Virus record (IMG/VR): IMGVR_UViG_3300014913_000009
Coordinates: 1 to 64,000 of that record
DNA length: 64,000 nucleotides
Reading direction: 5' to 3' (one strand)
Source: a virus
Both the position numbers and the translations under genes were made by a program. Below the pieces are notes generated by a model. The model saw nothing but the letters and a program-made list of their open reading frames with translations. It was not told the origin of the DNA and made no database searches. Positions 1,848 through 64,000 of this stretch are shown piece after piece; within the stretch, counting starts at the first letter, position 1, and each line of letters opens with the position of its first letter.

Positions 1848-3297
1848 TTTTTATTCTTTCAGTAAGTGTGTTTAAAAGTGAATTAAATCCATTGTCTTCA
1901 ATCAATGCATTTAATGTATTAATTCTTTCTTCAAATCCTATTAACCCAGTATTTGAGACTGATGCATCATTAGAAAGAAAATGTAATGGACATCTATTTG
2001 TGATTATCTCACGAATAGTAATTTCATTACGTTCTATTTCTGTCATAAAATCAAAGAAGGGTTTGGATAAATTCTCATCAAGTATGCTTGATAGCAATGG
2101 CATTGTTGTTCTAACTGATAATTTGCTTTCGAGAAGATCAATAATAATTCCGAATCTTTTAGCCAATCCGTGCTTAGAATCAAACAATTCTTGCGATGCT
2201 CTTTCAATGATATGTGCAAATGATTTCATCAATGTAACATTTTGATCTGCGATCAACCATAGCATTTTGGCAAAATTGCCAATCATACCAATCCACAATT
2301 TACCAATAATTATGCCCGATGCTATTTCTAAATCACTTTCTCTTAGATCTTTAAGGTTACCATTAATCCATTTGTTTATATCATCTTTTTTGAGAGATTC
2401 GCAACAATCAAGAATATAATAAGTATCAGAATCTTCATTGAGAATATCTTCAGCGCATAATGAAAAATTATGTACTTCCATTATTCCTTCAATTTCTTCT
2501 TGATAATTATTAATATCTACCGGACCAAGACTTTCCCCAAGTTTCATCTCATGATCCCATTCGAGAGAAGTCCAATCTTCTTGAAGATTCATGCCTGGCA
2601 ATCCCATTAATCCAAATGCCCAATCTCCATCAAAATCGGCATTCATACCTTTCGTATAAGGTGGCGCCATACCAATTGTTGGCTTATCCCATTTTCGAAT
2701 GGTAAGTTTGCGAAAACTTTGATCGTGCAATACTGGCTGCCGAAAAACAATTGCCCATGCAAATTCTGTTGTTTCGCCACAATGTTTATAGAAATATTTT
2801 GCCATTTTTTTGTATATAGGTATTGGTAATGCGATTTCATCATATTCAATCCATGGACAATGACATATAACTCCTCGAAACGAACCTTCGGCACGATGAT
2901 TATATATATTGGTATTTAGCCGTCCTTTCTTGCCGGCAAGATCTAATGTAATGGCATTCCAATACAATCTTACATTAATCGACACTTGCTCATCATAAAA
3001 GTCAGGATCTTCTATATGATAGTCCTCCCATTCTCGAACCATATGAATAAGACGATCAAAATGAAATTGGATATTTGACAATACATATTTGTCATTTATG
3101 ATTTCTGGTTGTTGAGGGGGGATAAGAACATAATCTACTATTTTCCCGCTTGCATTTTCTATTTTGATTGGCAATTTAAATATGCCGCCATTTTTAATGC
3201 ATTCGTCAGTAAGAATATGATTTTCTATAGTCAAAACATCAATAGGATCTACCATCCTCTGGATATATTTCCCTATTGGTCTTAGTATTTTCTTCAT
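1756..3297 (-). CDS. Phage RNA polymerase beta'-like catalytic subunit (minimal, ~513 aa)
   Basis: Contains LAGKKGRLNTNIYNHR...FRGVI, RQPVLH and NADFDGD, with R-to-D spacing of 35 as in cellular beta'. Start set at ATG 3297 after AAAGGAG (track start is 3321). Confidence 0.93.
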   Translation of the reverse strand: MKKILRPIGKYIQRMVDPIDVLTIENHILTDECIKNGGIFKLPIKIENASGKIVDYVLIPPQQPEIINDKYVLSNIQFHFDRLIHMVREWEDYHIEDPDFYDEQVSINVRLYWNAITLDLAGKKGRLNTNIYNHRAEGSFRGVICHCPWIEYDEIALPIPIYKKMAKYFYKHCGETTEFAWAIVFRQPVLHDQSFRKLTIRKWDKPTIGMAPPYTKGMNADFDGDWAFGLMGLPGMNLQEDWTSLEWDHEMKLGESLGPVDINNYQEEIEGIMEVHNFSLCAEDILNEDSDTYYILDCCESLKKDDINKWINGNLKDLRESDLEIASGIIIGKLWIGMIGNFAKMLWLIADQNVTLMKSFAHIIERASQELFDSKHGLAKRFGIIIDLLESKLSVRTTMPLLSSILDENLSKPFFDFMTEIERNEITIREIITNRCPLHFLSNDASVSNTGLIGFEERINTLNALIEDNGFNSLLNTLTERIKNGQNFISRQRQKDTKKTPSTVIAGQTVLHV

Positions 3298-3781
3298 CTT
3301 CGCTCCTTTGCTTAAAGTCAAGTGCCATACGCAGTTTTTGCTCTCCTGTTTGCCCTGCGCTATACTTCATAGACAATCTTACGCTATGATTGTCTTTACC
3401 AATACTTTCATAGTTCCATAATCCAAGATGTCGAATATCCATATTATTAAAATAGTCTGGAGGTGATATTATTCCAGGAATATTCATATTAAATGAAACC
3501 GAACCATCAGATTTTCGCCTACTCGGAACACCATGTATAAATACTTCTCCCGGAGTAGATTTCGTAAGATGTTGTCTTTTTATTTGCAATTTTGCAATTT
3601 CGGCATCTATTTGCTTAATTTCATCTGTTGGTTCTTGTGGTTTATATACTGGAAAAGACTTCATTGATCTCAGTACATGATTCGCGACTTCCTGTATATA
3701 ATCGCAAGTGTCAGGTCTTGGTTGCAACCAAAGTCTTTCTGATTGCATTTCGTCCATTATTTTGAATGCTATATTTGACAT
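3239..3781 (-). CDS. Hypothetical protein overlapping the beta'-like start
   Basis: 180-aa ORF with SD (AAAGGA), in operon with the RNAP genes. Confidence 0.7.
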   Translation of the reverse strand: MSNIAFKIMDEMQSERLWLQPRPDTCDYIQEVANHVLRSMKSFPVYKPQEPTDEIKQIDAEIAKLQIKRQHLTKSTPGEVFIHGVPSRRKSDGSVSFNMNIPGIISPPDYFNNMDIRHLGLWNYESIGKDNHSVRLSMKYSAGQTGEQKLRMALDFKQRSEDEENTKTNREIYPEDGRSY

Positions 3782-16075: not shown

Positions 16076-17119
16076 CTATTCCTCGTCCTCTTCCTCCTCT
16101 TCTTCCTTTTCTATTTTTACGCCCGACTCCAACAGGAACCGGGCGGCCTCCACAAATCCTTCCTCTATTGCTACTCTCATTTCCCACCCGTAATCTCCAG
16201 AATTGAGGTCTATCCAACCCCCTTCTACGAGGGTCTTTATCATGGGCACACTTCCCAGCGCGTACAGCAGCGCTTGACATGGAAGATCGCCACCTTCCTC
16301 CAACATTAACTGAACCAGACGGCAGTGTCCCGCCCTGATGGCACGGAGGACATCCTCCTCGTCAATTAATGATGCACGAGACCTTGATTCGATCAGGGTC
16401 CGTGAGATGCACTCACATCCCATCCTCACGGATGTGGAGAGGTGCTCTGAAGATGCACGCCCTCCGAACTCAAGAGCGAGATGAATCATAGAAACGTTCC
16501 CACTCTCAAGTGCGTCCTCCATGATGTCTCCCTCATAGTCGGGAGTCCTCTCCAACAGCATCCGTGCTGCGAGGACATTCCCCGATCTTACCTCTCTGTT
16601 CACCTCCATGCCCGAAAGTGGGCATTCAAGTGACTCTAGTATCAACCGGAGGCATTCCACCCCCTGCAGGCTGCCTCCTTGACAGTATCTTATCGCCTGC
16701 GCGAGTGAGCTCTTGTTCTTGCCCGCTCCTCGCTTGAGGAGCAGGCGGACGATCTCAGTATGACCATGGAACGAGGCCCATCTCAAAGGACCCCCCTCGT
16801 CGAAGTGTATACAAGCCCCTGCATCAAGGAGCATGCGAACAGCACCCTCCCTGCCCTCCGTAGAGGCACTAACAAGCGCCTCCCCCAGGGTCTCGTTCGA
16901 AAAACAAGACTCTTTTAAAAGCATCATGAGGATGCTTTCCTTTCCACGCCATGCTGCCGTCAAGAATACCGTCTTGACGGCATCTTTCGACACCCCTCTT
17001 GCGAGGATAGTCTTTACGACAGATTCTCGTCCGCCGTATGAGGCCTTGATAAGGCCTCCTTCCAACACCCTCGTGGGGATGTTGTTTGCCATCAACTCAA
17101 GTGTGAGTCGACGATCCAT
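16076..17119 (-). CDS. Ankyrin-repeat protein (N-terminal domain apparently frameshifted off)
   Basis: Repeats such as PLRWASFHGHTEIVRLLLKRGA; acidic tail. Confidence 0.85.
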   Translation of the reverse strand: MDRRLTLELMANNIPTRVLEGGLIKASYGGRESVVKTILARGVSKDAVKTVFLTAAWRGKESILMMLLKESCFSNETLGEALVSASTEGREGAVRMLLDAGACIHFDEGGPLRWASFHGHTEIVRLLLKRGAGKNKSSLAQAIRYCQGGSLQGVECLRLILESLECPLSGMEVNREVRSGNVLAARMLLERTPDYEGDIMEDALESGNVSMIHLALEFGGRASSEHLSTSVRMGCECISRTLIESRSRASLIDEEDVLRAIRAGHCRLVQLMLEEGGDLPCQALLYALGSVPMIKTLVEGGWIDLNSGDYGWEMRVAIEEGFVEAARFLLESGVKIEKEEEEEEDEE

Positions 17120-18411: not shown

Positions 18412-18504
18412 AAATACAGACAAGAACAGTTCTTGTCTGTCATACTCTCTATTGGGGTGATTTCGTCCATACGGAGAAATCCCCACATGGTGTCTCTTTA
18501 CATC
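18412..18504. repeat. 93-bp perfect direct repeat, copy 2 (includes the 3' end of the single-chain RNAP gene)
   Basis: Identical to 17416-17508. Confidence 0.95.
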
Positions 18505-21500
18505 CCCACTTGGAGAGTATGTCGGCGACATTTCGTTCGCCAACATTATAATCCCGATTTCTATTCTCGGGATTATCCGTAACGAAGGAGCACCCTTTAT
18601 GGAGTGCATCCATCACTCTCTCCACGGGGAGTGGTGCCCTGTCTTTCCTCTTTCCGTTTACGGAAATAAACAGGACCTTATTCTCCTCCCCATTCCAGTT
18701 GGGGAGATTTTTGACATATCTGCCAGTACTCCCCTTGGAGTCTAGATTTGCCAAAAGGAGATCAGAACGATCCCATTTTGCCTTATCCTTTTCTCCATAT
18801 TTCCCCTGGAAGATTTCCTCCGCAGGGGATCCAAATTCAATCTCATTGGACATTGCATCCAATGAGATTTTGGGAGACCATTCAGGGTTACTCATACGAC
18901 CCCCAATGATCGCCCACACTCCCATCGGAACAATCTGTTCGACGAGAGACCATGGATGAACATTTTCACCCATAGCATAAGGCTTGCCGCTCTTATCGCG
19001 GTTTACCTTAAGAGTTCTATCTTCAAGATAGAACTTCTTAATCCTACCTTTCGTATTGCGCTCGGCGAGACTCATCGAGCGTAATATGCAGATTAGATAG
19101 AACTCAATTGAATGAGGCATATCAATCAAGTACTGTTTGATAGCCTCTATTTGCTGGCTATTATATTTAGAGTCACTTCTAAACATGCTAGCCCAAATAT
19201 CAAATAAGGACATTACCGACATTCCATAGCCGTCAATATCCTTCTCCGAATTCAAACGCCCCTGCATAAGGCGTTCACGTGCCTTACCTCGAACATTCTT
19301 GACGGCTGGGCGTTTAGACCACAACTCTATCAAGAGGCTCGAGACGGCATTATAAAGCCCCACATTATCCTCTGCTCCGAGGGTGGGACTTTTAATGACA
19401 GAGTACATCTGAGCGAGCCTTCCAAAATGAGGCTCCTGGATGTTGCTCCATTTATGACAATTCTCGACTACTTCCTTGTAGCCAAGAATTGTCGAGGTTT
19501 CACCAATCACCCGCTTCTCTGCGAGCGATTGGACTTCGGGGGACGCATCTTTCGATGGGCCCTTTATATATTTATAAAGGGAAGCATCTTCATGCATCCT
19601 CCAAATCGAGGGGCTTCTCTTGCCCCAATTGTCGGGAATTCTATTCCCGAAAGTTCGAGCCAGAATTTTGTCTGGCTCGACCTTGCAACCCAAGAACTGT
19701 TGACATTCGTCTCTAAACAGATCTGGGTTGATAATAACGCCATCCAACTTATGTTTCAATAAGTTGATAGCGACCTGAACCTTCATGGTCAATCCATAAA
19801 GGCTCGAGGCACATGATATGAGATCAAGTCCCATATCATGTGCCTTAGAAAATAGGGATGAGAGTATATTATCATATACTCCAATCCCATTAGTTTGGAC
19901 ATCCATGATCATGTCACGAACGCCCTTCCAACCCCAAGACTCACTCCGCTTGGTGGTCGGAGTGTCAAGCCCATCAGCATAAACATCTTTCGATGCTCTG
20001 ACGGACTTAACAATACTCAGATTCATTGCATGCAACTTAGACCAAGTCGCAGGCAACAAATCAACATGGGACACATTAACTGCATCTCCATCGAAATCTC
20101 CTCGACATAATATCGAGAAGATTTCCGGATTTACACTCATTGCGTTTGAGTGTGAACCCTTAACCTCCCTGGCTACGACGATAGATCCCGCCGTGACCAG
20201 TGGGGAACGTGTCATCATGACGTTCCCCTTGCGAGGTTTCATCCCACCAGGAATGGCAATAATCGTATTGCCACCCCGAAATGGGGGGATACATGGGTCG
20301 GGCATCACATAAGCATAAATGCCACGAACTCTTACATTCGCAGCCTTATGATGCAATGCCTTCCCCATTGCGCTCTCACCATATATGCCCGCGACATGAC
20401 ACTTCATGCCGGGAACATTCATAGCGAAAGCGCCTTTTGTATTGGCATCCACTCCGAATGCCTCATACATGAGCTGGTAATCAGCCCATTTGCCGCCAAT
20501 ATTGACGGCATGAACGCCCCGCGCCAATTTCTCGCACGTGACGTACGTTTTAGCCATCAAATCCTCGACCGAGGCATTATCCGGCATATTGCGGATGATT
20601 TGAGAACTCATTTTTACTGAGTTTCCAACATCCTTAATTTCAGAGATGCATGTAATTGCACCTCTTTTGGCACCACTACCAGTGGACTTTATATTCCACG
20701 GGCTAATAGTCCCAAACTCTGCCGACAATCCCAACCGGGACATCAGCAAAGAAATGAAAGTACTGGAACCACATAGCCCTTTGGCTATGTCAATTCCAGT
20801 TTCTCGAAGTTGTACGGCACGCAGCTGTACAACCTCATCTTTGGGCTCAACATTATATATGTTAAGCCCGTCGAAATATTTATCGCCAAATTCGACAAAC
20901 ACTTTTTCAGTGCTGTCGAACTGAGATAAATATTCTCCTATAGTAACAATGTCACTATAGGCTGGCATTGTCATCCAATCGGACGGCAATGCCTTCTTGA
21001 TGGAACGATTGGCACTATTGTACCATTTGTTCCATCTCCCTTCGGCAATTGTAGACACGATAATTTTTATCGCATCCTCCTTGCCGAAACGAGACAATGG
21101 AAACAAGTCCATTGTCTCGAATTTATAACTTGTCACCTCCCTGCAAGGTGACAACAGGAGCCGCGTATAAATCGCTTCATACACGGCCTTGAAACCCCCA
21201 GGTATGAGGGTTTTAAACTCACCCCGGTTTAGGAGGATGAATTGCTCACCCTTCATATCCGGGATTAATACCGCCACTTTACTGACGGTCCTGAATATGC
21301 TCCCAAGACGACTCTCGAGAGCATCGTCTACACGGGCCCTGACCCATGCAGACATCTTTGCAGGTTCGTCCTGGGGACACCTGTCCCACAGTTCGTCCCG
21401 GACAAGGGCTTTTACACCCTTTATGGAAATAGTAGCAAGTTCCTGACGCTTGCTACCAAGGATTGAAAGGATATGTTCTAAAACACGCCCTTTCACTTCA

Positions 21501-21583
21501 ATCGACCCCACACACGTGAGGTCGATTTTCAATCCCATCGACTTAAATAGAACCTCGAAGGTCCTATTTACTAAATTCTTCAT
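18449..21583 (-). CDS. Single-chain two-barrel RNA polymerase (YonO / cellular RdRP-like)
   Basis: FDG, QLR...AKG...NIK (first barrel), RSP...GDFDGD (R-to-D spacing 37) and IGVYDN, in RdRP/YonO motif order. Confidence 0.82.
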   Translation of the reverse strand: MKNLVNRTFEVLFKSMGLKIDLTCVGSIEVKGRVLEHILSILGSKRQELATISIKGVKALVRDELWDRCPQDEPAKMSAWVRARVDDALESRLGSIFRTVSKVAVLIPDMKGEQFILLNRGEFKTLIPGGFKAVYEAIYTRLLLSPCREVTSYKFETMDLFPLSRFGKEDAIKIIVSTIAEGRWNKWYNSANRSIKKALPSDWMTMPAYSDIVTIGEYLSQFDSTEKVFVEFGDKYFDGLNIYNVEPKDEVVQLRAVQLRETGIDIAKGLCGSSTFISLLMSRLGLSAEFGTISPWNIKSTGSGAKRGAITCISEIKDVGNSVKMSSQIIRNMPDNASVEDLMAKTYVTCEKLARGVHAVNIGGKWADYQLMYEAFGVDANTKGAFAMNVPGMKCHVAGIYGESAMGKALHHKAANVRVRGIYAYVMPDPCIPPFRGGNTIIAIPGGMKPRKGNVMMTRSPLVTAGSIVVAREVKGSHSNAMSVNPEIFSILCRGDFDGDAVNVSHVDLLPATWSKLHAMNLSIVKSVRASKDVYADGLDTPTTKRSESWGWKGVRDMIMDVQTNGIGVYDNILSSLFSKAHDMGLDLISCASSLYGLTMKVQVAINLLKHKLDGVIINPDLFRDECQQFLGCKVEPDKILARTFGNRIPDNWGKRSPSIWRMHEDASLYKYIKGPSKDASPEVQSLAEKRVIGETSTILGYKEVVENCHKWSNIQEPHFGRLAQMYSVIKSPTLGAEDNVGLYNAVSSLLIELWSKRPAVKNVRGKARERLMQGRLNSEKDIDGYGMSVMSLFDIWASMFRSDSKYNSQQIEAIKQYLIDMPHSIEFYLICILRSMSLAERNTKGRIKKFYLEDRTLKVNRDKSGKPYAMGENVHPWSLVEQIVPMGVWAIIGGRMSNPEWSPKISLDAMSNEIEFGSPAEEIFQGKYGEKDKAKWDRSDLLLANLDSKGSTGRYVKNLPNWNGEENKVLFISVNGKRKDRAPLPVERVMDALHKGCSFVTDNPENRNRDYNVGERNVADILSKWGCKETPCGDFSVWTKSPQ

Positions 21584-50880: not shown

Positions 50881-52335
50881 ATGACAGACGTTTTTTCAAA
50901 CGTGCCGGGTGTACGCCTTACTTTCAAAGATGGTGGATTAGCAGTTAATCCTCCAGCTCCAGGAACTAAGGTTACTGTCCTGGCTGTAACAACCTCTTCC
51001 TCACTTGATGTGAATGAACCTGTTGTCACTGCTAAACAATCCGATGCACTCGCACTAAGTTATCATGCAGATGGCAGTCCGTCAGAAATGACGCATGCTA
51101 TTTCCGAAGCTTATGCTGGTGGTGCGCGAATTGTTGAATTAGTCAAAATCTGTCGGGAAGACGCTAGTGGAAATCCGCTCGCTTCTGGTGAAGTCGCTAC
51201 CGAATCTGGTGGTACTTATACCAAATCTGACGATATGACAGCAGACCAAAGATATGATTTACTCGAAGATGCTTATGCACAATTACTCGATCATGATGTT
51301 GATATTGTGGTCCCGTATAATGTATTTATTGATAATCCAGGTACTGCTTCTGGCTCATTGCCGAGGCGGGAATTTGGATGGCAATTAGCACATTTTTGCT
51401 ATGAAAGCACTCGAGGGAATAATACGGCAATAGGCGTAATAGCACATAGAAGTGAATTGGAGGTCGCGGATCAAGAGCATAGCGAAACAGTTGATGTTAT
51501 GCACGGAACTCCGACTCTCGCTCAACTCAGTCGTTGGGCAACTGAACTCAAGAATCATACTTATGATTCGTGGTATGATGGCGACGGCGTAAATGGAACC
51601 GATGGAAATCATAGACCAACCAGTTATGCATATTTCTTAAATGCAAGTGATTCGACCCTCCCTGGTACGATTTCATCTGCTGAGACAGATGCTAACGGAT
51701 GGCCAATAGATCTTGGTAAATATATCAGCGTAGTTGCTGGTAATGTCAGGCATCCAAATTTCATTGCTCAAGTCAATTATCCCGAGTTTGGATATTATAA
51801 TGGCAACAAAGCATGTTATTATGCGGGAATGCTCACAAGGTTACCTTCTGAGATAAGTCCAACTAATAAGGCGCTTTCTGGAATAAGTGTGGCAAGAAAA
51901 TTAAGTATTACACAACTCAACAACTGTATTGGTGCTCGATATATTGTACCTCGAATCAAGGCTGGTAGGGGACTTCTTGTCGCCGATGCCATGACTGGTG
52001 CGTGGAATGTATCGCGGTACTACAGAAGTGATTATACACGTATCACAACTGTACAGATTTCACATGAAGTTGGGGATATAATTCGCAATACTATTGACCC
52101 ACTTATAGGCAATCCGCCAAATCCCAACACTACGGCATCAATTCAGGCTATGCTGGACAATCTTTTGCAGGACATGATTGAGGATGGCAAGTTACTTGCC
52201 GGCTCATCTGCTGTATTTAGCCAGACTCCTGAAGAGCGTGCCCTAAACGAAGGGACTGTTAACGCATCACTCCAAGTACCTGGAGAGTTGCGTATTGTTA
52301 CTGGTGTTATTGGCTTATCGAAAGCCACAGCATAG
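50881..52335 (+). CDS. Tail sheath protein
   Basis: PGV N-terminus, SPTNK, C-terminal LQVPGELRIV. Confidence 0.85.
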   Translation: MTDVFSNVPGVRLTFKDGGLAVNPPAPGTKVTVLAVTTSSSLDVNEPVVTAKQSDALALSYHADGSPSEMTHAISEAYAGGARIVELVKICREDASGNPLASGEVATESGGTYTKSDDMTADQRYDLLEDAYAQLLDHDVDIVVPYNVFIDNPGTASGSLPRREFGWQLAHFCYESTRGNNTAIGVIAHRSELEVADQEHSETVDVMHGTPTLAQLSRWATELKNHTYDSWYDGDGVNGTDGNHRPTSYAYFLNASDSTLPGTISSAETDANGWPIDLGKYISVVAGNVRHPNFIAQVNYPEFGYYNGNKACYYAGMLTRLPSEISPTNKALSGISVARKLSITQLNNCIGARYIVPRIKAGRGLLVADAMTGAWNVSRYYRSDYTRITTVQISHEVGDIIRNTIDPLIGNPPNPNTTASIQAMLDNLLQDMIEDGKLLAGSSAVFSQTPEERALNEGTVNASLQVPGELRIVTGVIGLSKATA

Positions 52336-52348
52336 GAGGAACTAAATT

Positions 52349-52987
52349 ATGGCTATGAGCACAAATGATTATGGTAAAACATACACATCTTTCTCCGGTG
52401 CTGACATTCTCATCTCTGTTGGTGGGAAAATTATGGGTGAATTGCAAGGAATATCCTACAGCATTACCCGTGAAAAAGCACCATTATATACACTAGGGTC
52501 ACCGGACCCCCGCTCATTCTCTCGTGGCAAACGAGGAATTAGTGGAAGTTTAATTTTCTTAGTATTTAATAAAAGTCCGCTTCCCGGAAGCATGCCAGAG
52601 GAAAGGGTTGAGTTTATAGGGGATTCAAAAGAGGGTCAAATTTCTACATCTATGTATAATAATAATCTCTTTCAAGAGCCAACTGCCCCACTACAAACCA
52701 TAGCCGCAGGCACATTCGGCAGCGAAAATCCAATAAAATCATATTATGCAGATCAGATCCCCCCGTTTGATGCCCTGATAAGAGCGTCAAATGAATATGG
52801 ACATACGGCATTCATGGAAATTATTGGTATCGAAATACTTAATACCGGCTCTGGAATGTCTGTTGACGACATTACAATTGATGAATCTCACACTTATGTT
52901 GCGAGACGTATCAAAAAATGGTACAATCAGCAGAGGTTTGCCGGCAGCAGATGGGCCGAGGACGATTATCTTGGTGCCTCATACTAG
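52349..52987 (+). CDS. Tail tube-like protein
   Basis: SFSGADI...LQGISYS...GKRGISGSLIF; follows the sheath. Confidence 0.75.
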   Translation: MAMSTNDYGKTYTSFSGADILISVGGKIMGELQGISYSITREKAPLYTLGSPDPRSFSRGKRGISGSLIFLVFNKSPLPGSMPEERVEFIGDSKEGQISTSMYNNNLFQEPTAPLQTIAAGTFGSENPIKSYYADQIPPFDALIRASNEYGHTAFMEIIGIEILNTGSGMSVDDITIDESHTYVARRIKKWYNQQRFAGSRWAEDDYLGASY

Positions 52988-55513: not shown

Positions 55514-56185
55514 ATGGAAATATCTGATCCGAGGATAGCCTTTGACCTCGACAGACGATGGGCATTGCCAGATACGACACAATGGACAAGGTCTCAATGG
55601 TCGCCACATATAATTGCGGCGATCATTGACGCTAAAGAGCAATATCCAACGGTCTTTATGGTGGAAGTCACTACCCCAAAAACATATAATCATAATGGAG
55701 ATGATTTTCTCTTTATTGTTCGCCCATTATCAAGAAGGGAATTCAATATTGTTGGCTCTGTAAATGCCGCGGGAATGTTCTTCGATAGAGAAGTATTATA
55801 TCGGCGATCATTATTATGGCCGGATGAAGATTTTCTCGACGACTTACCAGCAGGTGTTATAGAGACTGTATATGATACTGTCGAAATGATATCCGGCTGG
55901 GGAGATGTTAGGACACTCCAGGAGTTACAAGCAATTTCGCGCGAACAAATAGGTGTGGATAATGATGTGGGGTCGGTTGAGTCAAAACTCGACATGACGT
56001 TAGGAACAGTTTTCAAATCATTGTCGCCGCTTGACATCAAAGATATGGATGCCTATGAAAGTATGCATCTTATTTCTATGGTGGAAGGAATTCTTTCCGA
56101 ACAAGGATTTAAGTTTGACCTTTCTTTCGAAGACAGAAAAGCAGAAGAGGAGATAAGACGAAAAAGATTCGTTGTTAATAGATGA
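55514..56185 (+). CDS. Putative tail assembly chaperone paralog
   Basis: FIVRPLSRREF..LPAGV..ISGW. Confidence 0.55.
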   Translation: MEISDPRIAFDLDRRWALPDTTQWTRSQWSPHIIAAIIDAKEQYPTVFMVEVTTPKTYNHNGDDFLFIVRPLSRREFNIVGSVNAAGMFFDREVLYRRSLLWPDEDFLDDLPAGVIETVYDTVEMISGWGDVRTLQELQAISREQIGVDNDVGSVESKLDMTLGTVFKSLSPLDIKDMDAYESMHLISMVEGILSEQGFKFDLSFEDRKAEEEIRRKRFVVNR

Positions 56186-59100
56186 CCGATTATAGAGATG
56201 AATCAAGTACTTGGGAATCAACCCTAAAATGGGGAATGATTGGCATTGGTGCCGTTATGGGTGCTCGTGCTGCTTATCGTTATTCCCCTGCATTTCGTAA
56301 AGCCGCAATCGAAACTGCCGCGACTGCAGGTGATTTGTATCGATCGGCTGGAGTCCAAGCCAGAAAATATGCATCCAGATGGTCAACAAGCGCAAGTCCC
56401 GCAAAACAAGCGAGTGCGTCAGCCCTTGAATACTTTGCTGGCATAAAACAGGGAGGTATGCCGGCAGCATCAACAGTCCTCGAATCTGAAATGATTGAGT
56501 CCCTATCTCGTATTGATGTAATCCAATATAGCGACGATGCAATCGGCGATCTTAGATCTGCACTTGGCAGAAAATACGGGCAACCGATAGTAGGAGCGCC
56601 TAAAGGATATCGTCATATGACGGTACAAGACATCCTCACCAATGCACAAAAAGCCAAAAAGGGACATTATGCAATCGGCGAGGGCGGCAGGATGATGACG
56701 GCAAAAGGTTATGAAAACCTTAGGAGCGCCGTACAATCCGGTGCCGTTGACACTGAATGGATATTCAATCAAGACATATTTCTTCGCGAAATGGATAATG
56801 GAAAATTCCTAATAAGAGATGCTCGATTAGTTAATCCTGCAAAAACAGTATCTCAGGCACTTCAAAGATCGCAAAAATTCCGCATATTGGGTATGAGCCC
56901 AGCCGACCCGTTAGTTCCAAGTTCATGGACAACAAAAACTGCATCGGATTTAATGAGTCCAGATATTCCGATAAATCTTCGTGGCAGAGGGCCAACAAAA
57001 GTTGGTGGTGATTCTGTAATGCAAATTGGGGATAATGTATATAGCGTCCAAGGCAATCAAATGAAACGCGTAGGCAAAACCGACGCTCGTATATATACTA
57101 GCCCGAGATTGGTTAAGGAGCGTGCTGGACAAGCCGGTATGGGCGGTCAGTATTATGGACCAAAAGACACCCAAAGAGCAGTTACCGCAAAAGAAAGAAT
57201 TGCACAAGATCCCAATCGCTACAAAGGACCGATTGGGAAAGTCCGGAAATGGGCCGAATCCGGAAAAGGATACAGAGGATTTGGAATCGGCGAAGGATAT
57301 AATATTGGACCGCAATATAAACATGGGCAATCCATATTCGGTTTCGCCAGAGATTGGATGAATAAACTCCTCAATTACAAAACGGCAATCAATCTTAAAA
57401 CGGGAGCAAGGGGCGCAAAAGCATTTGCCGAAGAGAGCGTAATTGACAAGGTTAAGGGTTTCTTCAAAATCACTCCGGATAAAATGAAGAAAAATATGTA
57501 TTGGGCATCCGAAGAAGAACTCGGAAACCTCACCCTCAAACAAATGAAGGATGCCGCGAATCTTCATGCAAGCACCCACACAACCATAGAGTCCGTCTCA
57601 ACGCCGACAATGAGACTTCAGGGTAAATATCATACTGAAGTTAGGGATGTCGCTATGACGCCAGGTGAGGCTGTGGGGGCCTTTGGCAGAAAGTTCACAA
57701 CATCCGCAACAAGGGTGTTTGAATGGGCAACGGGAATGGGAGTTAAGCCCGGCACCGCAGGACAAACAATGCTTAGATTGGTGGCGAAGGGGGTCATCCC
57801 GACATGGCTATTGGTTGAAGCATTTAAGTATGGCGATTTTATGTCGGAAGAAATAACAGGCGTAAGTCCAATAAAAATGGGGGCTTATGGCTATGCGGGG
57901 GCGCAAACTGCAAAGCAGGGAATGCTTAATCTATCCGGATTTTCAACACTTTCAAATGCCGCGGATGAAGCTACAGGTGGTTTTTGGTCATCGACCGGAG
58001 GGACAATATTAAGAACTGCCGGTATTTTTGGAGCAAGTCTGGCAATCGGCGCTCATCCAGCCGCGAGTAAAGCGACAAAAAAATGGGCTCCAAGATTAGG
58101 GCTCGGATTAGCAGCGTTGCAACTTACGGGATCTCCCGGTAAATCGGCATTTGATCAATGGGATGAATACACCGGAAATAAAATGGTGCCGATAAGAAGG
58201 GGAAGGGGTTGGCTCACTGGACCACAACCTTACGAAGGTGGAGAAGTTCAATATTATAGGAAGCATGCAGTAGCACAAATATTGGATGATAGCCAATATG
58301 AAAAGTTTGGCGGGAAACAAGCATATTTTGAAGACTTATCTTTATTGCCAACACCTCATAATTGGATGGGCGCGAAAAGAATATTGGATCCTTATGCATG
58401 GGAAAAGCGCACATATTACGATCAGCCGTACCCACTTAACAAAGGAATGTTTTCTGAAGTTCCAATAGCAGGACCACTCCTTGATCTTACTGCTGGCCGC
58501 ATTCTTAAGCCAAGAGTAATGATGCATCAACAGGAAATCCAGAGGTGGCTCGATACGCCACAAATTCCGAGAGACCCCAAAATGACAATGATTGCAGATC
58601 AACTCAATATGCAATTACCCGTTACCGGAAGAGCCATTCCTAAATTCGGCGTAGCACAAGAAATCGGAACGGCAATAAAGGGTGCAACAGATTTTATTGG
58701 TATGCCCGGATTTATGCTGAATGCACTTAAAGAAAAGGCAACAGGAAGTTCCGAATGGTTCCATGATGGCCCAGTATGGCAAACGCCAGACTATCAGGTA
58801 TCTCAAGTAAGAAATTTCTTTGAGATGGAATGGGGCGGAATGCTTGGGGGATCAGAATTGTTCCGGCGTATGTGGTCAAAAGATTCTCACGAAGTATCAT
58901 TCGTTAATCCAATCCCCAATACAATGCCGGATTATATGCCCGGAAGTAGATCAATGTATGGAGATACTAATTTCATCAATTTCTCCGAAGGTGATCCATT
59001 TTCAAAAATAAGAGCTCCTGGTGCTCGCAATCTCCACATGGCACTCAATCCTCATACGAGTAATTTTGACAAATGGAGAATGCTCAAAGGGGTCGCCCCA

Positions 59101-60291
59101 TTCTCAAGAGCTGCGAAATCATTCGAAGCGGGAGTTATTGGAGCTGGAGAAAATCAAGTATTCAATGATGCACAGCAATCCCAATTCGAAGATGTCCAGA
59201 GTCGTATGAATATGTATGATCCTTCGACCGCATGGGCAGGGGAAGAAGGTGGAAGTTCCGGATTCCAATCATCATTACCTCATATTCCGTGGGTCAGCAC
59301 AAAATTTATGGGCGCTCCATCACCAGAGGAACATTATAGAAAAATGGTAAGATATGGTTCTGATTACTGGGACTGGAAAAATCCTTATGATCAAATGCTG
59401 GATCCATACCTATCATACATGAGCACCCAAAACCCGGTATCTGCAGCTGGTAGTGGTGCATTACTAGGATCAATCGCCGGATCAAGAGGCGCTGTTGTAG
59501 GAGCCGCTTATGGGGCGGTGTCTTCAATCTTTTCTGATGATAGTATTTCCAATAAAGAATCTCGCAGGGAATTTACAGAAGATTATTTTGACAAAATGCA
59601 ATATACCAAATTGCGCATGATGGAAGAACGCGCACTGGATATGAATAGAAGTGACCTTGTCAAAAAAATCCAAAATATGCAATCAAGCACAATGGTCGGA
59701 TTGGATTATAGTCTGGACTCGGAAGAATTTGCATTAGCAGCCAAAAAAGCATTGCCATCAAAAGACAGGGGTTATCTAATGGCGCTTGCAAATTCGGGTA
59801 TGGATACTTCGGAAATGCCAGAATATATGCATCCGATAATTGACAAGCTTCGTGGTCAGGGTAATCCTAAAATGAGTTATGCATCCAGAGATAGGATGGT
59901 CTCTGATTGGGTTGGAGAGAATGGCGGGATTCCCGGTGGAGAATGGGCTGGATGGGCTCCTGGCGTAGATATGCAAAAACTCAAAGCGGTTTCTGTTGCT
60001 GCTGATGGCGATAATATGCATGACTATGGATCTTATGAACCCGATGTAGAAATGGATGCCTATAGTTCTCCCTACTTAGATGCCATACAAAACTACGGGA
60101 CAATTAGCAATCCAGACTTGCAAAATATGAGTAGGATGGTGTATAATAATATGGCTCATCTCCGCAAGTTGGGGATTGACAATGGGGGGGTTATGATTAC
60201 CCCTTCATTTGGCAGTGGGCGGAGTCAATGGAATATTAATAGAGGGCGCGTAAATAGTGCCCGGCAATGGCGACAAAGAGGGATTTGGTAA
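56182..60291 (+). CDS. Tape-measure-like / large virion protein
   Basis: 1369 aa, Gly/Ala-rich with hydrophobic segments; follows the chaperones. Confidence 0.65.
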   Translation: MTDYRDESSTWESTLKWGMIGIGAVMGARAAYRYSPAFRKAAIETAATAGDLYRSAGVQARKYASRWSTSASPAKQASASALEYFAGIKQGGMPAASTVLESEMIESLSRIDVIQYSDDAIGDLRSALGRKYGQPIVGAPKGYRHMTVQDILTNAQKAKKGHYAIGEGGRMMTAKGYENLRSAVQSGAVDTEWIFNQDIFLREMDNGKFLIRDARLVNPAKTVSQALQRSQKFRILGMSPADPLVPSSWTTKTASDLMSPDIPINLRGRGPTKVGGDSVMQIGDNVYSVQGNQMKRVGKTDARIYTSPRLVKERAGQAGMGGQYYGPKDTQRAVTAKERIAQDPNRYKGPIGKVRKWAESGKGYRGFGIGEGYNIGPQYKHGQSIFGFARDWMNKLLNYKTAINLKTGARGAKAFAEESVIDKVKGFFKITPDKMKKNMYWASEEELGNLTLKQMKDAANLHASTHTTIESVSTPTMRLQGKYHTEVRDVAMTPGEAVGAFGRKFTTSATRVFEWATGMGVKPGTAGQTMLRLVAKGVIPTWLLVEAFKYGDFMSEEITGVSPIKMGAYGYAGAQTAKQGMLNLSGFSTLSNAADEATGGFWSSTGGTILRTAGIFGASLAIGAHPAASKATKKWAPRLGLGLAALQLTGSPGKSAFDQWDEYTGNKMVPIRRGRGWLTGPQPYEGGEVQYYRKHAVAQILDDSQYEKFGGKQAYFEDLSLLPTPHNWMGAKRILDPYAWEKRTYYDQPYPLNKGMFSEVPIAGPLLDLTAGRILKPRVMMHQQEIQRWLDTPQIPRDPKMTMIADQLNMQLPVTGRAIPKFGVAQEIGTAIKGATDFIGMPGFMLNALKEKATGSSEWFHDGPVWQTPDYQVSQVRNFFEMEWGGMLGGSELFRRMWSKDSHEVSFVNPIPNTMPDYMPGSRSMYGDTNFINFSEGDPFSKIRAPGARNLHMALNPHTSNFDKWRMLKGVAPFSRAAKSFEAGVIGAGENQVFNDAQQSQFEDVQSRMNMYDPSTAWAGEEGGSSGFQSSLPHIPWVSTKFMGAPSPEEHYRKMVRYGSDYWDWKNPYDQMLDPYLSYMSTQNPVSAAGSGALLGSIAGSRGAVVGAAYGAVSSIFSDDSISNKESRREFTEDYFDKMQYTKLRMMEERALDMNRSDLVKKIQNMQSSTMVGLDYSLDSEEFALAAKKALPSKDRGYLMALANSGMDTSEMPEYMHPIIDKLRGQGNPKMSYASRDRMVSDWVGENGGIPGGEWAGWAPGVDMQKLKAVSVAADGDNMHDYGSYEPDVEMDAYSSPYLDAIQNYGTISNPDLQNMSRMVYNNMAHLRKLGIDNGGVMITPSFGSGRSQWNINRGRVNSARQWRQRGIW

Positions 60292-63200
60292 ATGCCCAGA
60301 AGAAAGAAAAAAGGAATTGTCAAACCATTGTTGGGAGCAGCTGCATTAGGCGGTGCTGGATACGGGTTTTATTATAGTCTTAAAAATCCAATCAAAAGTG
60401 CTGCGGGAGAAGTAGCCGCAACAAAACCTAGTCAAGCATATTCGGGAAAAGGTCCGATAGATAGAACCCCTGAATACAAAGGAAAGCCAATAATGATTGG
60501 TGAAAATCCAATCCCGCCAGGCGGACTTAATTTACGAACCGAATCAGAATTTGCAAAATTGTCCGCGGAACATCTACAAAAAGTCGACGATGCAACACTA
60601 CGAATGCTAAAGCAAAATACAGGACAATCCAATAGTTATGGTGGCATCTTTTCTGCTGCAGAACAACAAGGATTGGGAGTAGATATTACCAGGACTGGCG
60701 GAACAATCAACGTAGAAATACAAGGACTAAAAGGTCCAACACAAGTAGTGCAACTTCCAGCCCAACCAAGAGGAGGCGGAAAAGCAACCTTCGGTCTGCG
60801 CAGATATAATGCACCAACCTTTATTGTTGGCGAAAGAGGTGCGGAAAGAATAGGGCATGTTCAGGATGCAATTGAAGAAAGTATTTTTAATGCAATAAAA
60901 GACAAGAAAAATCTTACTCCAACCCAATTCGCCGATGTGATACAAAACGCAAGACAGGAAGTATTTGATATATTGCCGGCCAGCACCAATACGGATTATC
61001 GCGGATTTGGGCAAACAATCGAAAGTACCAGAATGTCCAATCGTATTGTTGGAACGAGACTTCAAAGGGAATTAAGTACACTTGACAAAATCCACGGAAC
61101 CGGAGTGCAGGCAGAAGCGGCTAGACGCGGATTCAGAGGAATTAAAACACGAGCAGATTTATATGGTGCGGTTATCTCTGATTATTGGCAGGGAATGTCT
61201 GATGACGTATTAAAGAATGTGGGAATATCGACCAATAGAACTTCGCCTGAATTTTACAGACAAGTAATGTCGATGTATGACAATACTAAAGGTGGAAATA
61301 TGATTAAGGGGATTGGACATAGATCGGTCATGGGTAAGTCCGCAATTGTTGGAACCCCACTTGACAAAGTATTACATGAAGGTGGACGTATTTTAAGAAG
61401 TGGAAATCTTGTCAATCCAGAAAGTGGACAAATTGCAAAAACATGGAATGGAATTAAAGATGGAATGATATCCAACTTCCCTGCTGGACCAGAGGGAATA
61501 CGAGCATTAAATACCGGAGCCAATAATAGGCTGATTGGAACAACCAGCCGTGCAGCATTTATCGTTGATCCGAAAGCAGCGGCAGTACTTGGTTTTGATC
61601 CGTTCGAATCCGGCGGATCATTTAGAGTTTCCAAAATGCAAAAAGACGTTCTTACACAAGGTATTCATACAAGGTATAATCTTGATGTTCGACCAGGATC
61701 TCCAGGTGCTCCAAAAGGAATTGATCTCGCCATAAAAAAACAAAAGATTGTCAGGTCGGGAAACAGAGGGAAATATGACAAGTGGATTGGCGGGCTTTCG
61801 CAGAAGGAACAACGTATTGTTGGCGGATTCGATGATCCTTTGATGACATTTGGTAAAGGACAACTCGTTGGATCGGGGTCAATTGAATTCATCGAAGATG
61901 GGGCGACAAGATCAGTCTCAAGCCGCAATATAAGGACAAGAGGTACTTATGATGTTACAAACATAGGATACAATGCCATTGATGATACTCTTTCAATACA
62001 AGGGCATATGCGTGCCTCAACGGCGGCATTAACGATAGGAGGAAGTCATGCAAGTATGAATCCGCATACATTTTCAGCAAGCAAGCTAGGCGATGCTATG
62101 AGCGGAGGGAATGTACATATACTTGGATCGTGGACAGATCTTAAAAAATGGGATCAAATGGGAGTGCTTTTTGATGACCTTGCAGTACAGATCGAACAAG
62201 GGGGAGGAAATGCCGTGAAAGCATTTTCAGACCTCAAAACAATGAATCTAAAAACATACAACCAGACTGTTAAAAAATTTGGGCTTGAAAGCAAAATAGA
62301 TTATATATCCAAAAAAGGAGAGATAAGACTCAAGACGACAACAAGAGATGCGAAAGAAATCGCATTAGCTGCTGGTTATACGGAGGCTCAAGCGGCTGGA
62401 ATAACAGGGCAAATAGAAATGGCAAATCTTGCATCTAAGGTTACGATTGGAGGAGAGGCATCATTCTATTCTTCGAAGGGAGTGTGGTCAAATGCATATC
62501 AAGAAGGTACATCATTGGCACATAGGCGGCTTGGAAAACTCAATGAAATTCAGAGTGTATTACAAAGAGGTGATGTCGAAGAAGCCAAGCGAATGATTAG
62601 AAATATTGGAGGAGATAAAGGAAAAGATATATTCGCATCCGAAAGAAAAGGATATGGCGAAGCATTTGGCAAACTTGGACAAAAAAATATAGACGACAGA
62701 TCAATACTGCTCAATAGAACAAGAGGACTTATTCAAAGTGCAGAAAAAGATATTAATGTTGGACTTAGCAAAATGAATACTATTTCAAATCTTAAAATGG
62801 GATTTGATGAATCTATCATGCTTGGACTTACAGCAAACAAATCATACAAGACATTAAGTAAAATCATACAAGGAGAAATGGTCAAACAATCAGGTTCTGC
62901 TGGCAGAGAATTAAGAGCATACATGGGGCAGATGGGAATGGGGACTCAAGGCAATTGGGGTATCGCCAATGTCGGAGCGCTTCAAACAAAAAGCGGGCCA
63001 TTGACGAGGGTGAAAATTGGAAGTAGCGAACTCAAAGAACTTGGCAGTATTGCAAGAAATTTAGAAAAACAATTATCCGATGGCAGTCCAATCACACAAG
63101 AAATGTTCGACAGTGTAAATAAAAAATTTAATGATGCTCTTGGAAGGGTTGGTGTTGCTCCAGGAGAATCAATGGGTGGATTTCTACTTGAAACAAATGG

Positions 63201-64000
63201 GATGGAATTACCAGTTGCCATTGGAAGTAATCCGGTAAAAGTCGGAGGACAACAAGGGCAAATATATATACCAGGCATTAATGAGGCGGTTCCTCAAAAC
63301 CAAATGTTCCAACCCGGTGGATATTCAAAAAACAAAATACTTTTAAGAAAACTCAAACTTTATCAGCACCTTGGCATGTATCCAAATGAAGCAATAGTTG
63401 GGAAAAGAGCAATGCCGGGGCTTGCCGAAAATTGGAGATTGGGAACTGGCAAAGCAATGGGGGATTTATATGATGAGTTGAATGTAATGTCCACTTCAAA
63501 AAAGGGTGGGGGCAGAAGAATAATGGGGCAAGAATGGAGAGCAGAAGCATCAATTTATTCTCAGGCAATTGGACAAGGACAAATTGATATACAGGATAGA
63601 ATGATGGCATTAAGCGGATCAGAGAGACAGCGAATACAGGGACTAAAGGGGACGCAGCAAATAGAAGCACTTGACGACGCATTAGCAAATACAATATTCA
63701 TATCCAAAGAGCAGGCAAAACTTATGCCCGATGATATTTATCAAGCCATCAAATCCGGCAAAGGATACGGAATCACAGGACGATGGCCAATAGTATCTCC
63801 TGGTGGCATTGGAGTTACGCGTTTTGCTATCGCTGAAAGTTTGCATGGAAATGTCGCAGGAGTTAGTTCTGCTGGACTAATGAGATTTGCCGGTGATGTA
63901 GATATGGATAAAGTCGCAGCATTTGTTGGTCGATTTGAAGGAAATGCAGAAGCACAAAAAGCATTAGAAGAAGCATATAGTTATACACTCAAACAGAATC
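60292..64000 (+). CDS. Large virion protein with RNA-polymerase-like catalytic barrel (partial; candidate virion RNAP)
   Basis: Translated by hand: open for 1236 codons from ATG 60292 to the window end (absent from the ORF track). SKKGGGRRIMG...IFISKEQA...GRWP...AGDVDMDK. Confidence 0.75.
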   Translation, partial: MPRRKKKGIVKPLLGAAALGGAGYGFYYSLKNPIKSAAGEVAATKPSQAYSGKGPIDRTPEYKGKPIMIGENPIPPGGLNLRTESEFAKLSAEHLQKVDDATLRMLKQNTGQSNSYGGIFSAAEQQGLGVDITRTGGTINVEIQGLKGPTQVVQLPAQPRGGGKATFGLRRYNAPTFIVGERGAERIGHVQDAIEESIFNAIKDKKNLTPTQFADVIQNARQEVFDILPASTNTDYRGFGQTIESTRMSNRIVGTRLQRELSTLDKIHGTGVQAEAARRGFRGIKTRADLYGAVISDYWQGMSDDVLKNVGISTNRTSPEFYRQVMSMYDNTKGGNMIKGIGHRSVMGKSAIVGTPLDKVLHEGGRILRSGNLVNPESGQIAKTWNGIKDGMISNFPAGPEGIRALNTGANNRLIGTTSRAAFIVDPKAAAVLGFDPFESGGSFRVSKMQKDVLTQGIHTRYNLDVRPGSPGAPKGIDLAIKKQKIVRSGNRGKYDKWIGGLSQKEQRIVGGFDDPLMTFGKGQLVGSGSIEFIEDGATRSVSSRNIRTRGTYDVTNIGYNAIDDTLSIQGHMRASTAALTIGGSHASMNPHTFSASKLGDAMSGGNVHILGSWTDLKKWDQMGVLFDDLAVQIEQGGGNAVKAFSDLKTMNLKTYNQTVKKFGLESKIDYISKKGEIRLKTTTRDAKEIALAAGYTEAQAAGITGQIEMANLASKVTIGGEASFYSSKGVWSNAYQEGTSLAHRRLGKLNEIQSVLQRGDVEEAKRMIRNIGGDKGKDIFASERKGYGEAFGKLGQKNIDDRSILLNRTRGLIQSAEKDINVGLSKMNTISNLKMGFDESIMLGLTANKSYKTLSKIIQGEMVKQSGSAGRELRAYMGQMGMGTQGNWGIANVGALQTKSGPLTRVKIGSSELKELGSIARNLEKQLSDGSPITQEMFDSVNKKFNDALGRVGVAPGESMGGFLLETNGMELPVAIGSNPVKVGGQQGQIYIPGINEAVPQNQMFQPGGYSKNKILLRKLKLYQHLGMYPNEAIVGKRAMPGLAENWRLGTGKAMGDLYDELNVMSTSKKGGGRRIMGQEWRAEASIYSQAIGQGQIDIQDRMMALSGSERQRIQGLKGTQQIEALDDALANTIFISKEQAKLMPDDIYQAIKSGKGYGITGRWPIVSPGGIGVTRFAIAESLHGNVAGVSSAGLMRFAGDVDMDKVAAFVGRFEGNAEAQKALEEAYSYTLKQN

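Follow-up and report, generated by a model that had tools for sequence, protein, structure and literature searches.

Virion RNA polymerases (RNAPs) allow phage transcription to begin without, or despite, the host enzyme, and those that are fused to a tape measure are known, to our knowledge, from one group of Thermus siphoviruses only. The IMG/VR virus record IMGVR_UViG_3300014913_000009 raises the question of whether a contractile tail could carry such an enzyme as well. The window analysed here, the first 64,000 nucleotides (nt) of this single 89,970-bp contig, ends inside a giant tail-module gene, P0002, whose product bears an aspartate triad, DVDMD, resembling the DFDGD catalytic loop of RNAPs. 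The answer is graded. Residues ~1070-1320 of P0002 are very probably homologous to a beta'-type catalytic core, a relationship that is well supported by profile scans, alignments, and a predicted fold. P0002 itself appears, on balance, to be the tape-measure-slot protein of a large contractile-tailed, 0305phi8-36-like phage, with a very diverged RNAP module of the two-barrel type in its second half (~870-1320).

The first-pass annotation, made within the window, reported an uninterrupted frame of 1236 codons running to the window edge. The open reading frame (ORF) listing agrees: an ATG-started ORF at 60292..63999 on the plus strand (1236 aa) is still open at the edge and extends on the contig to 65361, for 1689 aa in full. 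Translation places every motif quoted in that annotation (SKKGGGRRIMG, IFISKEQA, RWP, and GDVDMDK) where it had been reported, residue n beginning at nucleotide 60292+3(n-1). The in-frame start right after the upstream TAA is also correct; the ATG abuts the TAA of a 1369-aa gene and is preceded by an AGAGGG Shine-Dalgarno-like run. On a related IMG/VR contig (L003), the two genes share 1 nt and are read in different frames, so the shared frame is incidental. The Shine-Dalgarno-like run, together with the differing frames in L003, also led us to reject read-through from the upstream gene across its TAA. The claim of an N-terminal hydrophobic segment holds in part: a Gly/Ala-rich segment is present at residues ~9-30 but is weakly hydrophobic (Kyte-Doolittle mean < 1.4), a threshold that residues 1581-1600 pass. 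The latter constitute the one hydrophobic segment of the C-terminal part, which is helical after the bridge-helix block described below and ends in a conserved tail. P0002 contains no cysteine, and DVDMD is its sole DxDxD.

Such a motif alone is weak evidence, because one DxDxD is expected by chance in about one in five proteins this long (an estimate at ~5% Asp). An exhaustive HMMER search of 1.8 billion representatives recovered two relatives (1605 and 1679 aa; expect values (E) of 1e-40 and 4e-35), both singletons, on metagenomic contigs of 6 and 24 kb, and an IMG/VR scan added a third on L003, with identical gene order. No relative of P0002 was found by tblastn against 50,697 phage records, word-index protein searches returned the query alone, and metagenome, genome-collection, and viral scans seeded with the distant relatives yielded nothing further. 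Across the four family members, at 26-39% identity, the three aspartates are invariant (DVDMD, DVDGD, DLDGD, and DTDLD) and stand among the ~11% of aligned columns (56 of ~525) that do not vary. Also kept are K1070-x-GG, G1163/P1166, the GFLLET block with Y992/P994/E998/V1000, K1020, and A1298/G1304/N1308. The triad is retained, too, in the slot proteins of the cultured phages KLEB27-3, WH1, and ME3. Invariance at this level of divergence, in company with flanking conserved motifs, raises the triad above chance. The loop had been described as non-canonical; the methionine in DVDMD is real, but it is a detail of one lineage, as two relatives carry the canonical DVDGD and DLDGD. In the L003 relative, a frameshift within conserved sequence (L003:12600-12680) splits the slot gene into ORFs of 906 and 874 aa, and ahead of its ATG the second frame reads DLGWQELSMLGL. 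An assembly error could account for this, as could a genuine split or shift.

For comparison with a real beta', the E. coli rpoB and rpoC sequences were used, and five family segments were scanned as ungapped profiles along rpoC, with p values taken against shuffles. The triad segment found its best site at beta' 453-472 (p 0.028), and the segment at residues 1290-1314 found its own at beta' 780-804, the bridge helix (score 17.0 against 7.0 for the next-best site; p 0.018). The reverse scans were reciprocal: across the whole 1689-aa family profile, the E. coli triad segment fell best at 1195 (p 0.015) and the E. coli bridge helix at 1290 (22.2 against 10.7; p 0.011). The family consensus of the latter block is TGYITNRL, ~95 residues after the triad and beyond the window available to the first-pass annotation. 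Of the beta' look-alikes named in that annotation, the DFDGD region alone is thus recovered by scans, while KKGGGRR and IFISKEQA are not recovered on their own by gapless scans against E. coli beta'. Gapped profile alignment with hhalign placed RWP through the triad in register with RSP through the triad of another polymerase-like protein of the same phage, a 1044-aa ORF (E 0.011-0.012), whose barrel is the closest within-genome match to that of P0002 (E ~0.01). With a six-sequence profile, RWP also fell on NRAP of E. coli beta' (E 0.021); against the phage's own beta', the alignment covered RxP, the triad, and the bridge helix (E 0.1). Over the whole contig, the Pfam models Rpb1_2, Rpb2_6, and Rpb1_5 and the RNA-dependent RNA polymerase (RdRP) model PF05183 match only the known beta and beta' genes, PF05183 matching nothing.

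An intermediate between this divergent family and textbook beta' is provided by cultured phages. In Bacillus phages vB_BauM_KLEB27-3 and vB_BceM_WH1, the slot proteins gp034 and gp095 display a near-canonical beta' signature consisting of LGSAKMDMSGRF..., NRYPT..., and KAD(Y/H)DGD. The P0002 family profile and this pair align in exact register across 105 columns (E 2e-4), RWP falling on NRYPT, and the pair in turn aligns with E. coli beta' 327-466 (GKQGRFRQ... to NADFDGD) over 132 columns (E 0.049). In the latter alignment, the Bacillus-phage stretch equivalent to SKKGGGRRIMG is itself matched to E. coli beta'. With the slot protein of Acinetobacter phage ME3, ME3_36, hhalign of the P0002 family is not significant. 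The cultured proteins resemble P0002 in their position between a gp145-like protein and a hub, in having no cysteine, and in an equally spaced RxP...DxDxD; they differ from it in length (1603-2515 aa) and, for the Bacillus versions, in the near-canonical NRYPT...AD(Y/H)DGD. All three are annotated merely as "structural" or "hypothetical", and no study treating them as polymerases was found in the literature.

The predicted fold points in the same direction. Residues 800-1470 were modelled with AlphaFold2 without templates from a four-sequence alignment, giving a mean predicted local distance difference test score (pLDDT) of 61.5, with the best stretch at 900-1060 (70-89) and the triad loop below 50. 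Foldseek against the PDB returned no match at E <= 1e-3 with this model. Its top rows are mostly RNAP beta' chains, with the non-virion RNAP (nvRNAP) of AR9 best (E 0.036), followed by plastid and cyanobacterial beta' and the phiKZ nvRNAP, and a second look at the structure matches found RNAP largest subunits to be 50 of the 50 listed. RNAP chains outrank every other protein with a double-psi beta-barrel (DPBB). Positions 278-438 of the model (P0002 ~1077-1237) superpose on the catalytic barrel of E. coli beta' (350-489) with an rmsd of 3.4 A and 16% identity across 108 aa, and the helix-rich region before the barrel aligns collinearly with the beta' clamp. The model, of moderate confidence, puts the triad in a beta'-type DPBB loop. 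With the triad also invariant in relatives, neither outcome that the first-pass annotation named as refuting its proposal was observed. A model of the N-terminal half (140-830; pLDDT 38) matches just generic helical hairpins, so the enrichment in RNAPs is not a property of the search. Against BFVD, the best matches are A0A7R7G2L5_2 (E 2e-5) and A0A172Q021_2 from ME3 (E 7e-4). The pieces are 1258 and 802 long, half the lengths of WH1 gp095 (2515 aa) and ME3_36 (1603 aa), to which they would correspond on this ground.

A place for this protein in the tail is suggested by its neighbours. The contractile tail proposed at first pass is borne out by the sheath and tube genes. The terminase is a distant relative of those of Moorella phage MTATph1, Bacillus phage 0305phi8-36, and Acinetobacter phage ME3. 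The contig is a linear record with a CheckV completeness of 47%, and the genome is therefore probably ~190 kb. Sheath, tube, chaperone-position genes, a gp145-like protein, the slot ORF, and a hub follow one another on the contig, and ME3, KLEB27-3, WH1, and MTATph1 have the equivalent array. The upstream 1369-aa protein, which had been taken to be the tape-measure-like one, is instead the orthologue of 0305phi8-36 gp145, with several collinear blastp segments; gp145 and ME3_35 are virion structural proteins. The downstream 2779-aa protein is a blastp homologue of the hubs gp147 (E 5e-14) and ME3_37 (E 5e-9). Since its flanks are orthologous to gp145 and gp147, P0002 itself occupies the tape-measure slot, an assignment based on synteny. 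In 0305phi8-36, gp146 lies between gp145 and gp147 and was assigned as the tape measure through the correlation with tail length, and its authors remark that tape-measure genes diverge past recognition (PMC2147016). The gp146 record describes a virion protein found by mass spectrometry. Tape measure family profiles (Pfam PhageMin_Tail, TMP_3, and others; PHROGs) do not match P0002, nor do peptidase families in the Pfam and PHROG scans. All 12 gp145-like and slot giants examined (677-2537 aa; this contig, L004, L005, L007, L008, and L009) are free of cysteine. The two on this contig, P0004 and P0002, add up to 3058 aa without one, while its other proteins have 8-17 cysteines.

Given the slot, the precedent of Thermus phage P23-45, the cysteine-free composition common to slot proteins, and the further polymerase genes of this phage, we lean towards P0002 being a tail-delivered virion RNAP, complete and active, by analogy with P23-45 gp96. 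Its packaging, ejection, polymerase activity, and division of labour with the other enzymes are what we infer from these clues. The protein would be built into the tail lumen like a tape measure, exit through the tube upon contraction, and anchor at the envelope. There it would transcribe the first-entering phage genes without the host RNAP, and the separately encoded polymerases, namely, a beta'/beta pair and the 1044-aa DFDGD protein, would take over afterwards.

Several observations weigh against this reading. Searches of P0002, its core, and its relatives against Pfam (E up to 1) and PHROGs (E up to 0.01-0.1) gave no match, and neither did P0002 and its profile against PDB sequences. No similarity to gp146 or ME3_36 is detectable by blastp or hhalign, which leaves gene position as the ground for regarding P0002 as a virion protein. 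In 0305phi8-36 gp146 and MTATph1 CDS0027, the slot is occupied by proteins without any DxDxD, so that a slot protein can work without a polymerase module. The contig represents ~47% of the genome.

A further point concerns the second barrel. A two-barrel polymerase needs, besides the beta'-type barrel (DPBB-A), a beta-type one (DPBB-B) that contributes two basic residues to the active site. The first-pass annotation could not locate these lysines, and our profile and motif comparisons find neither the barrel nor the basic residues: hhalign of P0002 against the phage beta-like subunit, E. coli beta, and the 1044-aa ORF is non-significant throughout, as are ungapped motif scans with E. coli beta. 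The N-terminal half model, at its pLDDT, is unusable for barrel placement. Two placements are possible. The first is GFLLET...YIPG (963-1000), a block modelled confidently as a beta-hairpin that precedes the triad by ~238 residues; KLEB27-3 and WH1 have a similar LLE(M/L)P block ~240-250 residues before theirs. The second lies upstream of ~885, giving a beta-then-beta' order, and is hinted at by two top hhalign matches, in which residues ~870-945 pair with the conserved C-terminus of beta (E 0.19 and 0.079, non-significant and unconfirmed by gapless scans), and by the clamp-like alignment. Residues 889-1069 may belong to the second barrel or form a connector resembling the clamp.

This same absence is what would be expected if P0002 were a beta'-like subunit only, contributing barrel A and the bridge helix and pairing with a separate beta-like protein in a heteromeric virion polymerase of the phiKZ or AR9 type. 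In the model, alignment to beta' runs collinearly through the N-terminal clamp and on into the barrel. This phage also has its beta and beta' as split genes, and half of its genome is missing from the contig. However, the single beta-like gene of the contig forms an overlapping pair with a beta' of its own, and ungapped scans of the upstream slot neighbour reveal no beta-subunit motif signal. Moreover, a lone beta' would leave unexplained the ~870 conserved residues before the module, which could hold a diverged barrel. The barrels of gp96 were likewise invisible in sequence except for DFDGD, the fold emerging from the crystal structure (PMC10770324). We consider a beta'-only protein unlikely.

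Similarly doubtful is a polymerase relic, inactive or exapted, that persists in the tape measure or ejection protein as a structural or DNA-binding part, its triad kept for metal-dependent folding or for gripping DNA. In 0305phi8-36 and MTATph1, the slot does function without such a module, and at least two other RNAP-like systems are encoded by the phage studied here. The fourth loop position varies (M, G, G, and L in the family; Q in ME3), as do the candidate basic residues. Yet three aspartates among the few invariant columns, with a conserved bridge-helix block, are typical of catalytic constraint, and crAss-like polymerases are active with DFDxD (bioRxiv 10.1101/2020.03.07.982082).

It is more improbable still that P0002 has no relation to polymerases. 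It would then be an ordinary ejection protein or tape measure in which DxDxD arose by chance, or one with a cell-wall enzyme of the double-psi-barrel type (RlpA-, MltA-, or expansin-like), such as is frequent in tape measures. The base rate of the motif and the modest model confidence speak for such a protein. So do its language-model neighbours, which are labelled tape measure, though with a score (0.79) that is below the noise level; the N-terminal half has none. On the other hand, the triad does not vary across relatives, the bridge helix match is reciprocal-best, the structural ranking favours RNAP chains over all other DPBB proteins, and the cultured-phage relatives show a full NRYPT...ADYDGD signature with its beta' alignment. 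The hub downstream, in addition, already matches an "endolysin"-annotated family, PHROG 20474, to which the 0305phi8-36 hub gp147 belongs. Least probable of all is a two-barrel enzyme of other activity on the entering genome, whether primase-like or an RNA-dependent or PolD-like DNA polymerase: although RWP through the triad is closest to the 1044-aa DFDGD protein, the analogue in position and function of the RdRP/YonO-like gp99 (PMC2147016), the characterised phage members (YonO, crAss gp66, and P23-45 gp96 and gp64) are all DNA-dependent RNAPs, and the best structural matches are the largest subunits of such enzymes.

Table 1. Features of P0002, of its contig, and of slot proteins in cultured phages. 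Coordinates are those of the window or contig unless a locus prefix is given.
Feature	Coordinates	Strand	Basis or remark
Minimal beta'/beta pair	105-3321	-	Pfam Rpb1_2, Rpb2_6; PHROG RNAP
1044-aa RNAP-like ORF	18449-21583	-	TRSPLVTAGSIVVAR...RGDFDGD, triad 496-500
Terminase	at 37008		PHROG match
Portal	at 41718		PHROG match
Major capsid protein	at 46201		PHROG match
Tail sheath	50881-52335	+	PHROG 16991, E 5e-50
Tail tube	52349-52987	+	PHROG 9206, the family of the 0305phi8-36 tube protein
Upstream 1369-aa gene (P0004)	56182..60291	+	Orthologue of 0305phi8-36 gp145 (blastp E 6e-18) and ME3_35 (5e-21)
Tape-measure-slot giant gene P0002	60292..64000, stop at contig 65361	+	ORF listing; 1689 aa in full
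N-terminal Gly/Ala-rich segment, residues 9-30	60316..60381	+	Seen in all full-length relatives
Helix-rich region with small beta-sheet, residues 889-1069	62956..63498	+	Holds invariant blocks GFLLET (963-968), Y992/P994/E998/V1000
SKKGGGRRIMG, residues 1069-1079, catalytic barrel start	63496..63528	+	Invariant K1070, G1072, G1073, I1077, G1079
Beta'-type double-psi beta-barrel DPBB-A, residues ~1077-1237	63520..63999	+	Final residue just past window edge
IFISKEQA, residues 1135-1142	63694-63717	+	Translation
RWP, residues 1164-1166, counterpart of beta' NRAPTLH	63781..63789	+	G1163, P1166 invariant; hhalign register
GDVDMDK, residues 1201-1207	63892-63912	+	Translation
Asp triad DVDMD, D1202/D1204/D1206, putative Mg2+-binding catalytic loop	63895..63909	+	Alignments, reciprocal scans
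Bridge-helix block, residues 1290-1314	contig 64159-64233, beyond window	+	Reciprocal match to E. coli beta'
gp6-like baseplate wedge	at 74919 on contig		PHROG match
KLEB27-3 gp034 (Bacillus phage vB_BauM_KLEB27-3)	L008:18274-25578		NRYPTINQ...KADYDGD
WH1 gp095 (Bacillus phage vB_BceM_WH1)	L009:16380-23927		NRYPTINK...KADHDGD
ME3_36 (Acinetobacter phage ME3 gp36)			REP...DHDQD, more diverged

Beyond P0002, the contig encodes two further polymerase-like systems, so that, with the slot protein, three are present on half a genome (Table 1). The minimal pair consists of a beta' of 521 aa, with NADFDGD at 227-233, and a beta of 580 aa, with GDKITNRAGGKG, in beta'-then-beta order and overlapping ORFs. 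The 1044-aa ORF has no Pfam, PHROG, or RdRP-model match; it probably represents a single-chain polymerase of the YonO/RdRP type, with 0305phi8-36 gp99 as its analogue. For 0305phi8-36, the jumbo-phage survey of Iyer et al. lists just the YonO-like gp99 (PMC7824862). Two other genes deserve mention. The 2779-aa hub (contig 65361-73700; L001:9362-17701) contains a staphylococcal-nuclease domain at residues 317-415 (Pfam E 2e-6) and strongly hydrophobic segments at 1122-1172, 2407-2431, and 2628-2662, and a 347-aa ankyrin-repeat protein (Pfam Ank_2, E 2e-19) lies at 16076-17119 on the minus strand among the leftward, presumably early, genes.

The slot of 0305phi8-36 offers a different picture. 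Its gp146 (ORF146, L005:24624-32237, 2537 aa) contains the stretch DKMTYLDIETTGL, which resembles the Exo I motif of DEDD (DnaQ-like) 3'-5' exonucleases, the exonuclease-like motif being DIETTG. The slot protein may thus carry different enzyme cargoes in different branches. As a tentative generalisation, for which we would claim rather less than even confidence, the 0305phi8-36-like lineage, including WH1, KLEB27-3, and ME3, would repeatedly use its slot protein to inject enzymes. The cargo would mostly be a minimal single-chain polymerase, possibly a beta-beta' fusion, that passes along the tail tube and transcribes entering DNA at the membrane and couples entry to pre-early transcription; in 0305phi8-36 it would be exonuclease-like.

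If the module is active, the solution seen in Thermus siphoviruses would also exist in contractile-tailed jumbo-type phages, and cultured, tractable Bacillus and Acinetobacter phages would contain it without annotation. It would then become testable how a tail tube can store, and then expel, a folded polymerase of at least 150 kDa, how entry of the DNA is coupled to the first transcription, and how work is divided among three polymerase systems in one phage. For annotation, the "hypothetical tape measure" genes of large myoviruses are worth screening for RxP...DxDxD followed by a bridge helix. In the literature, we found no description of a myovirus tape-measure-slot protein with a polymerase module.

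Compared with known systems, P0002 shares features with several and coincides with none. The positional orthologue gp146 of 0305phi8-36 has the same cysteine-free composition and a hydrophobic segment ~100 aa from the C-terminus; it differs in having DIETTG in place of any DxDxD and shows no detectable sequence similarity. Among single-chain polymerases of the QDE-1/YonO type, the point of contact is the RWPIVSPGG stretch of P0002, which resembles the YonO-like 1044-aa ORF of the phage. The crAss-like virion RNAP phi14:2 gp66 is likewise a large single protein with a variant fourth loop residue, DFDID as against DVDMD, but it is a podovirus protein outside the tape-measure slot and keeps a DFDxD motif. 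With the beta' of multisubunit RNAPs, including the nvRNAPs of AR9 (7S00) and phiKZ (7OGP, 8QUE), P0002 shares the barrel fold, the triad position, and the bridge helix motif. Unlike them, it has no Pfam Rpb1/Rpb2 domain at any threshold and no identified partner beta subunit, its module lies inside a tail protein, and the distance from triad to bridge helix is ~95 aa instead of the ~320 aa of E. coli beta'.

The closest parallel is gp96 of P23-45 (Chaban et al., 2024; PMC10770324), in which a virion RNAP is fused to the tape measure and does its work ahead of a second RNAP of the phage. Outside DFDGD, it has no detectable sequence similarity to known RNAPs, and its two-barrel fold came from a crystal structure (PMC10770324). 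P0002 has no sequence match to gp96 in the PDB-sequence profile search; gp96, phi14:2 gp66, and YonO are not among the structural matches listed, an outcome not used as evidence. P0002 and gp96 are both giant proteins in the tape-measure position whose polymerase module would escape recognition by sequence but for its DxDxD, both have a hydrophobic or transmembrane element elsewhere in the protein, and both phages encode a separate non-virion RNAP. The differences are equally plain. P23-45 is a siphovirus whose 5,002-aa protein carries an N-terminal RNAP (active core 327-1124) and a metallopeptidase, whereas P0002 belongs to a contractile tail, has 1689 aa, and bears its module in the second half, after ~870 conserved residues. 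Activity and packaging are proven for gp96 and predicted for P0002. A virion RNAP of the P0002 type would differ from that of P23-45 in tail type and architecture, and would probably have an independent origin.

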